Assembly: GCF_003334255.1 (NCBI RefSeq) | Contig: NZ_QOWU01000153.1 | Direction: 5' to 3' (one strand) | DNA from: Escherichia coli | GTDB lineage: Bacteria > Pseudomonadota > Gammaproteobacteria > Enterobacterales > Enterobacteriaceae | Length of the DNA stretch: 1,616 nt | Shown: piece by piece, positions 1 through 1,376 of the stretch | Layout: each line of letters opens with the position of its first letter | Position numbering within the stretch: the stretch's first letter is position 1 | The notes under the pieces: model-generated | The model's database searches: none | Seen by the model: the letters and a program-made list of their open reading frames with translations, nothing else | Told to the model about the DNA's origin: nothing | Program-made: the position numbers and the translations under genes

Positions 1-351
1 AACCAGATGGACCCGGTGTACACGCCGGCGCGAAAAATCCACCTGTACCACTGCGACCATCGCGGCCTGCCGCTGGCGCTTGTCAGCACGGAAGGGGCAA
101 CAGAATGGTGCGCAGAATACGATGAATGGGGCAACCTGCTGAATGAAGAGAACCCGCATCAGCTGCAGCAGCTTATCCGCCAGCCGGGGCAGCAGTATGA
201 TGAGGAGTCCGGCCTGTATTACAACCGCCACCGCTATTATGACCCGCTGCAGGGGAGGTATATCACTCAGGATCCGATTGGGCTGAAGGGGGGATGGAAT
301 TTTTATCAGTATCCGCTGAATCCGGTTCAGTATATAGATTCAATGGGACTG
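1..351 (+). other. Conserved Rhs core C-terminal segment, ending in the PxxxxDPxGL-type demarcation/autoproteolysis motif ([10 protein letters not shown], nt 322-351)
   Basis: YD-repeat-like RYYDP (aa 76-80), DPIGL (aa 89-93) and PxxxxDxxGL (aa 106-115) are read directly from the translation. The segment is GC-rich (about 58% by hand count over nt 1-60), unlike everything downstream. Confidence 0.85.
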
Positions 352-810
352 GCATCAAAATATGGACACTTAAATAATGGCGGATATGGAGCGAGACCCA
401 ACAAACCGCCTACGCCCGATCCAAGTAAATTGCCGGACATAGCGAAACAATTAAGACTGCCATATCCTATTGACCAGGCCAGTAGTGCGCCTAATGTTTT
501 CAAAACATTCTTCAGAGCATTAAGCCCTTACGACTACACACTGTATTGCAGGAAGTGGGTAAAACCAAATCTGACTTGTACGCCACAGGATGATTCCCAG
601 TATCCAGGGATGGATACAAAGACAGCAAGTGATTACCTGCCACAGACAAATTGGCCAACAACTCAATTACCACCAGGATATACTTGTGCAGAACCCTATT
701 TATTCCCAGACATTAATAAACCCGATGGGCCAGCAACAGCAGGGATAGATGATTTGGGTGAAATTTTAGCTAAGATGAAACAGAGAACATCGAGAGGAAT
801 AAGAAAATGA
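1..810 (+). CDS. Rhs-family polymorphic toxin, 3' portion of the gene (5'-partial): conserved core terminus plus variable C-terminal toxin domain
   Basis: Frame 1 is open from nt 1 (aac cag precede the ATG at 7), so the listed ATG is an internal Met and the gene continues upstream. The translation ([12 protein letters not shown]...[47 protein letters not shown]) is the hallmark C-terminal end of the enterobacterial Rhs/YD-repeat core. Stop TGA at 808-810. Confidence 0.9.
352..810 (+). other. Variable Rhs C-terminal (CT) toxin domain, about 152 aa, activity not recognisable; Pro-rich linker followed by a roughly 110-aa C-terminal module
   Basis: It begins immediately after the DSMGL motif, where Rhs proteins carry their polymorphic toxin tips. 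Composition drops to about 45% GC (hand count over nt 421-480). A Pro-rich stretch ([30 protein letters not shown], aa 128-157) precedes a Cys-containing module (C181, C191, C227). I see no HNH, deaminase, ADP-ribosyltransferase or other familiar catalytic motif. Confidence 0.75.
792..799 (+). promoter_or_regulatory. Shine-Dalgarno / ribosome-binding site for the immunity ORF, embedded in the 3' end of the toxin ORF
   Basis: GAGAGGAA at 792-799, with the AGGA core ending 8 nt before the ATG at 807. Consistent with translational coupling. Confidence 0.5.
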
Positions 811-863
811 AAAGAGTTTTGTTCTTTTTGCTGATGATATTTGTTAGTTTTGGTGTTATAGCT
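807..863 (+). other. Predicted Sec signal peptide of the immunity protein (possible signal peptidase I cleavage after VIA, aa 19); a non-cleaved signal anchor is the alternative
   Basis: MKR positive n-region, a 14-residue hydrophobic h-region ([14 protein letters not shown]) and small residues at -3/-1 (V-I-A) before DC. It is not a lipobox, because the residue before Cys21 is Asp. Confidence 0.5.
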
Positions 864-1376
864 GATTGCGAAATACAAGCTAAAGATCATGATTGTTTTA
901 CTATTTTCGCTAAGGGTACTATTTTTTCCGCGTTTCCTGTCTTAAATAATAAAGCCATGTGGAGATGGTATCAGAATGAGGACATCGGTGAGTATTATTG
1001 GCAAACAGAACTGGGTACATGTAAAAATAATAAATTCACACCAAGCGGGGCGAGACTCTTAATTCGCGTCGGGTCACTACGCCTTAATGAAAATCATGCC
1101 ATCAAAGGAACGTTGCAGGAGTTGATAAATACAGCAGAAAAAACGGCGTTTCTCGGCGATCGGTTTAGAAGTTATATAAGAGCGGGTATCTATCAAAAAA
1201 AGAGCAGTGATCCAGTTCAGTTGTTGGCAGTCCTTGATAATTCAATCATGGTAAAATATTTTAAAGATGAGAAACCAACTTATGCTCGAATGACAGCACA
1301 TCTCCCGAACAAAAATGAGTCTTACGAATGTTTAATAAAGATACAGCATGAACTAATTCGTAGTGAAGAGAAATAA
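807..1376 (+). CDS. Putative cognate Rhs immunity protein (RhsI-like), 189 aa, with N-terminal signal peptide or membrane anchor
   Basis: The ORF lies immediately downstream of the Rhs CT with a 4-bp ATGA overlap (start 807-809, toxin stop 808-810), the canonical toxin-immunity arrangement. A Shine-Dalgarno-like GAGAGGAA sits 8-15 nt upstream. The N-terminus [19 protein letters not shown] has a basic n-region, a hydrophobic core and a VIA motif. The region is very AT-rich (about 30% GC by hand count over nt 841-900). Confidence 0.75.

Follow-up and report, generated by a model that had tools for sequence, protein, structure and literature searches.

Is the small Escherichia coli gene ybfC translated only when ribosomes arrive from the toxin-like Rhs ORF that it overlaps by four nucleotides, or can it also be translated by itself? 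The first-pass annotation of this locus had proposed a toxin gene and its immunity gene, translationally coupled through an ATGA overlap. We examined this proposal in a stretch of 1,616 nucleotides (contig NZ_QOWU01000153.1, assembly GCF_003334255.1), which in its entirety is called the window below and which is the ybfO/ybfC/ybfQ region of the E. coli rhsC locus. A single base, at position 182, separates the window from the E. coli strains K-12 MG1655, K-12 J53 and E2865. This position is an A in the window and a T in the three strains, and as a result the conserved Rhs core motif reads IRQPGQQY in the window instead of IRLPGQQY. At least 80% of the window was found in 3516 complete E. coli genomes. 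Among 5426 complete E. coli genomes, 3610 carried the junction region (640-1000), usually as a single copy, and in 3072 of these it was at least 99% identical. The features that matter for the question are listed here in window coordinates.

1..351, plus strand: GC-rich 3' end of the Rhs core, with matches to NCBIfam RHS_core, TIGR03696 and Pfam RHS PF03527
352..810, plus strand: variable C-terminal Rhs tip of the ybfO / RhsC-CT type, about 152 aa plus TGA, presumptive toxin domain
791..830, plus strand: predicted weak mRNA hairpin with the SD in its 5' arm (791-804), a 3' arm at 817-830 and the AUG in its loop
794..798, plus strand: SD core GAGGA, within GAGAGGAA (792-799) and inside the last toxin codons, R-G-I-R-K
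807..810, plus strand: ATGA, formed by the ybfC start (807-809) and the stop of the toxin ORF (808-810); RefSeq has the same 4-nt overlap
807..1376, plus strand: ybfC, 189 aa, secreted; presumptive periplasmic immunity protein (RhsCI)

The variable Rhs tip and its exported partner

The upstream ORF has the layout of an Rhs polymorphic toxin, a core that ends in a demarcation motif and is followed by a variable tip. RHS_core and TIGR03696 matched ORF residues 1-115, and the RHS_core match covered model positions 1147-1261 of 1261. The core is closed at 322-351 by a demarcation motif of the PxxxxDPxGL type in which S replaces P, corresponding to the form PxxxxD(P/S)xGL. The GC content is 56-64% in the core, 41-47% after about position 300 and roughly 30% at the junction. 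An EHEC rhsC-specific primer matches window positions 393-412 exactly. One STEC transcriptome group showed higher expression of both ybfC and rhsC. An in-silico study of EHEC EDL933 calls the pair RhsC/RhsCI, where RhsCI is z0853, a putative YbfC ortholog (PMC7216683), and a promoter survey lists the pair as operon ybfOC (PMC3946193). At the other end of the window, ATG 1603 is the start of ybfQ, an ISAs1-family (H-repeat) transposase pseudogene. The sequence TTTTCA-17-AATACT at 1550-1578 is exactly the constitutive sigma-70 promoter that was reported between ybfC and ybfQ (PMC3946193).

Searches of Pfam, NCBIfam and PDB sequences gave no match for the tip or for YbfC, with the matches of the upstream ORF confined to the Rhs core, and an Rfam search of the window gave no match either. 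Neither protein could thus be assigned to a known family or fold of toxins or immunity proteins. A profile search with the tip among 1.84 billion cluster representatives returned 27 with an E-value of at most 0.001. We inspected nine distant tip relatives. Each of them has [KR][KR] at its C-terminus, and the Rhs core motif is present wherever the sequence reaches far enough towards the N-terminus. The tips form a small domain family located at Rhs C-termini, which shares the motif SPYDYTxYCxKW...C...PGxDxKT..DYxP...xPxGYxCxEPYxFPxL and has three conserved Cys and no conserved His. The AF2 model of the tip was poor (pLDDT 50).

YbfC starts with a Sec-type signal peptide encoded at 807-863, comprising 19 residues followed by cleavage before DC. 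All YbfC homologs, from 100% down to 58% identity, begin with MK(R/K) and a hydrophobic signal peptide with an AxA-like end site, and four Cys are invariant among them. The AF2 model of YbfC is a beta-sandwich, and its structural relatives are only uncharacterised proteins of around 190 aa from Delftia, Paracidovorax, planctomycetes and others. Model and signal peptide together point to YbfC as a beta-sandwich protein that is exported by Sec and presumably serves the tip as its immunity partner in the periplasm. Because YbfC has a signal peptide, we place it presumptively in the periplasm and suggest that the Rhs tip probably acts there as well. An exported YbfC would then guard the periplasm against an incoming toxin and would not neutralise a toxin in the cytoplasm of the producing cell. 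To our knowledge, K-12 lacks a T6SS for toxin delivery.

We then asked how well the pairing of tip and YbfC holds up across relatives. Twelve close loci that retain the toxin 3' end came from E. coli, Phytobacter, Citrobacter youngae, Pseudocitrobacter, Salmonella salamae, and metagenome or genome contigs of Citrobacter and Kluyvera. Four distant loci were fetched in addition, in which the partner has about 190 aa, a signal peptide and 21-34% identity to YbfC. A YbfC-like protein followed the tip relative in every locus examined, close (12/12) or distant (4/4). The window thus has the adjacent downstream small ORF, co-varying with the tip, that marks an Rhs toxin/RhsI pair, and the co-occurrence supports the view that tip and YbfC are a toxin-immunity pair. 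The literature on ybfC, ybfO, b0704 and z0853 that we searched contained no work on the function or expression of the junction.

Considering that the upstream ORF is a variable Rhs tip and that a YbfC-like protein follows its relatives in every locus examined, the toxin and immunity labels given in the first-pass annotation are reasonable. The grounds offered for them fared less well: the labels had been backed by the overlap itself, and the signal peptide of the partner had gone unmentioned. No other spacing between co-directional genes of prokaryotes is nearly as common as NTGA with its -4 register (PMC12548453, PMC6728339), and the argument from the overlap is weak because any operon gene pair would show this junction by default. 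That tip and partner strictly occur together even in deeply diverged relatives is better backing for the pairing than the overlap.

The stop/start junction and its conservation

The overlap itself lies where it had been placed, with the ATG of ybfC at 807-809 and the TGA of the upstream ORF at 808-810. The register is -4, and no stop interrupts the upstream ORF between the left edge of the window and this TGA. Around the junction, the upstream frame reads ...AGA GGA AUA AGA AAA UGA and the downstream frame AUG AAA AGA.... The ybfC start codon is credible because MKR and a hydrophobic signal peptide start there in 21 of 21 aligned homologs. We also recovered the proposed SD within the final toxin codons. 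In the purine-rich run at 792-799, GAGGA (794-798) gave the best pairing with the 16S 3' end, at -6.0 kcal/mol and with a spacer of 8 nt to the ATG. This pairing strength lies within the top 3.7% among all 10-mers of the window, and the SD is moderate, not strong. The pair therefore has both the NTGA stop/start and a suitably spaced SD within the upstream ORF, two features of translationally coupled -4 pairs. Since codon 2 of ybfC is AAA, and K2 is nearly invariant, the TGA in the +1 frame is automatic, so a single instance of ATGA is unremarkable.

Across relatives, the junction was strictly maintained. The ATGA overlap and an AGGA core, usually as AGGAG, were kept in all twelve loci retaining the toxin 3' end, which represent six to seven genera, and all twelve have the toxin tail R-G-x-R-K. 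The -4 register was retained across about 40% protein divergence. Two of the twelve loci (L009 and L010) hold only a toxin remnant of 63-78 aa, and the junction is still kept there. In L009, from Citrobacter youngae, a 63-aa C-terminal tip remnant (5813-6004) precedes the ybfC homolog with the ATGA intact, and a separate fragment 3' of the homolog (6683-6880) is the N-terminal half of the same tip. Judged from its sequence, this arrangement looks like a rearrangement scar in an orphan Rhs module array. The four distant pairs were more variable: two keep ATGA together with the AGGA core, in a third the start codon is GTG and the overlap measures 14 nt, and in the fourth a gap of 1 nt separates the genes. 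Spacings of -14 and +1 indicate that tight juxtaposition is general, while the exact register is not obligatory.

The codons at the toxin 3' end were conserved beyond the amino acids that they encode. In the last 10 toxin codons, all five amino-acid-invariant columns had an identical codon (AGA, AGA, GGA, AGA, AAA) in six lineages. Upstream of these codons, the codon was identical in 22 of 64 invariant columns (Fisher p = 0.007, with lineages that are not independent). Elsewhere in the tips, AGA accounts for some 40% of the Arg codons and GGA for some 36% of the Gly codons. This argues that roughly the final eight codons of the toxin ORF (AGA..AGA GGA nnn AGA AAA) also serve ybfC as a ribosome-binding site and are under nucleotide-level constraint. 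Because synonymous sites are constrained, these codons probably form a real ribosome-binding site.

Translation of ybfC in full-length and orphan contexts

The same tip and ybfC occur in two genomic contexts. In the full-length context, found in E2865 and YL03, the identical tip ends an Rhs protein of about 1400 aa. The orphan context is that of K-12 (J53 and MG1655), O26 RM10386 and MB07081. Here the ORF before ybfC consists of an Rhs fragment behind rhsC-ybfB and is annotated as a pseudogene without an N-terminus and with no evident start. The longest orphan ORF in K-12 has an ATG that is preceded by CAGCACCCTCAGC, with no SD there. Among 29 full-coverage E. coli records sampled at even spacing, 8 bore a full-length label and about 20 (roughly 70%) an orphan label; the labels were checked in two full-length and four orphan records. 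In the approximately 70% of sampled genomes with an orphan upstream ORF, there would be little upstream translation to which ybfC could be coupled.

Tip and ybfC also occur at more than one chromosomal position. The cassette is about 97% identical between YL03, where it lies beside nikR (L011 1984-6737), and E2865, where it lies beside kdp/ybfA (L002 5611-10376). These are full-length Rhs ends at two different chromosomal rhs loci and provide an example of C-terminal displacement. Since an identical tip is found at different rhs loci, tip and ybfC travel jointly as a cassette.

A scan of the window for consensus sigma-70 promoters gave 5 sites where 3.9 were expected, and nothing above chance upstream of ybfC. 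The only sites on the plus strand were at 349-378 and 1234-1262, both with 9/12 matches, and the scan thus lends no support to an internal sigma-70 promoter ahead of ybfC. In Salmonella, rhs tips and immunity genes have promoters inside the rhs ORF that are independent of the full-length gene (PMC7043789). Their expression does not require that the full-length toxin gene be translated, a point against a strong coupling claim for ybfC.

We next considered whether mRNA structure could make ybfC dependent on the upstream ORF. The E. coli sequence was predicted to fold into a hairpin of -11 kcal/mol (z = -2.64) that pairs the SD with a probability of 0.99, and its 3' arm at 817-830 consists of the U-rich signal-peptide codons 4-8. 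Under strict coupling by RNA unfolding, this hairpin, with its arms at 791-804 and 817-830, would silence ybfC unless a ribosome translated the toxin ORF, and orphans would make no YbfC until they were recombined onto a full-length rhs gene. The pairing of the SD in the window speaks for this, since none of 100 codon-shuffled controls reached it, as does the z-score; L011 and L015 showed a similar tendency. The stem itself is weak, however, as it has just -11 kcal/mol and is almost wholly A-U and G-U, with a single G-C among the 13 pairs mapped from a 120-nt fold. Its conservation in homologs is also lacking, and compensatory changes are absent. The probability of SD pairing was 0.34-0.87 in the homologs, mostly no higher than in controls with shuffled downstream codons (about 0.6), and the only natural change that we saw in the 3' arm, T817C in L011, has no compensating partner. 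A structure that hides the ribosome-binding site is thus present in the window and is not kept in relatives. SD occlusion mostly reflects composition, in that a purine-rich tail faces U-rich signal-peptide codons. Strict coupling through unfolding is accordingly very unlikely in our judgment.

We also evaluated the hairpin as a selected element and rejected it after comparing nine homologous junctions, exclusive of the window and L011, with codon-shuffled controls. A broader proposal would join strict unfolding to the biology of the pair. It holds that the ybfO-type tip and YbfC represent an uncharacterised Rhs toxin family that acts in the periplasm and is matched by a beta-sandwich immunity protein exported through Sec, and that in addition the E. 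coli hairpin makes YbfC synthesis strictly dependent on translation of the toxin ORF, leaving the orphan majority silent for immunity until recombined onto a full-length rhs gene. We give this combination little credence.

At the opposite extreme, the two genes may not be functionally coupled at all. Independent 30S subunits would then bind at the SD of ybfC, and the ATGA would be a compact, inherited cassette junction that follows automatically from ATG-AAA and the frame. Several observations agree with this. The spacing of the SD is near-canonical and conserved, orphan contexts predominate in E. coli, and distant relatives have drifted to spacings of -14 and +1. Furthermore, ybfC homologs without a toxin ORF were found in three species (L005 1660-2223, L006 6001-6567 and L007 222-785). 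These copies have 71-72% identity and an intact ORF, lie directly after an ISAs1 transposase fragment, and resemble the E. coli junction over only about 18 nt upstream, where an AGAAGG motif is kept. Such intact copies suggest that coupling may be dispensable. With dN/dS values of 0.16-2.3 on just 5-20 differences, we dropped the toxin-less copies as proof of uncoupled function.

Published reporter assays bear on an absence of coupling in both directions. One E. coli ATGA pair, bioBF, was uncoupled, whereas four of the five native E. coli ATGA pairs that were assayed were coupled, and the strongly coupled ones have predicted structure in the initiation region (PMC6728339). Against independent initiation also stand the predicted fold of the naked E. 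coli mRNA, in which the SD is hidden, and the strict retention of the -4 register over about 40% protein divergence. Taken together, this makes two fully uncoupled genes a rather unlikely, though serious, alternative. We found no published coupling experiment for the ybfO/ybfC pair in the literature.

The explanation that we favor, and consider fairly probable, is a mixed regime with partial coupling in the full-length context and de novo initiation in the orphan context. In the full-length rhs context, a ribosome that reaches the TGA at 808-810 would melt the weak hairpin hiding the SD. Given the size of the ribosome footprint, a ribosome with this TGA in its A site must have opened the stem. 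Either the arriving ribosome or a fresh 30S subunit would then start at the AUG (807-809), by termination-reinitiation and/or RNA unfolding, and coupling would be partial. In the orphan context, where little or no upstream translation is expected, ybfC would be translated by de novo initiation at the same SD, from a transcript that probably starts inside the rhs sequence. By analogy with the Salmonella P2 promoter, such a start would be expected near window position 233, about 89 nt 5' of the codons for the demarcation motif. The occurrence of both contexts, the ybfOC operon listing and the joint rise of ybfC and rhsC in the STEC group fit the mixed regime. Models of such coupling are reviewed elsewhere (PMC12548453).

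Relation to known overlapping genes and Rhs modules

Much of this arrangement is already known. The overlap is part of the RefSeq annotation of thousands of E. coli genomes, both the operon and the toxin/immunity proposal have been published, and the mechanism is generic. A coupling claim matters little here, since an SD embedded in a -4 overlap is a textbook feature of operons. There is modest value in the locus as an Rhs module that two thirds of the complete E. coli genomes share and that combines a tip without a recognisable fold with an exported partner, which implies a periplasmic target. With an identical junction in full-length and orphan contexts, it is also a convenient natural system for studying how an orphan immunity gene is expressed.

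The ybfO/ybfC junction resembles the E. coli ATGA reporter pairs (PMC6728339) in its overlap, in the position of its SD within the upstream ORF and in the local structure predicted for the initiation region. It differs in that coupling was measured for those pairs, whereas ybfO/ybfC is known from sequence and often follows an orphan fragment that is probably not translated. Moreover, the product of ybfC is exported, while the downstream products of the reporter pairs are cytoplasmic complex partners.

The locus shares more features with Rhs-CT/RhsI modules (PMC3150448, PMC7043789, PMC7216683). As in these, the core ends in PxxxxD(P/S)xGL and an AT-rich variable tip follows, the adjacent small ORF co-varies with the tip, and orphan copies lie behind a main rhs gene. 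The ybfO/ybfC module is likewise found at another rhs locus (beside nikR in YL03). Unlike those modules, its tip has no match to a described toxin family, and its toxin role is presumptive. The signal peptide of the ybfC partner also contrasts with Rhs-borne toxins as they have been described, which typically target the cytoplasm (PMC11996579).

Other Rhs tips have comparable junctions. At rhsC/ybfB in K-12 (L012 783-796), the junction is likewise tight and the SD lies in the last toxin codons, with a TAATG in the -1 register and GGAG 7 nt upstream. Further -1 junctions were seen at other Rhs tips in L009, L021 and L024. All of these differ from ybfO/ybfC in their -1 register and in their unrelated toxin and partner sequences. 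From these sequences, tight junctions with an SD in the toxin tail look like the rule for Rhs modules.
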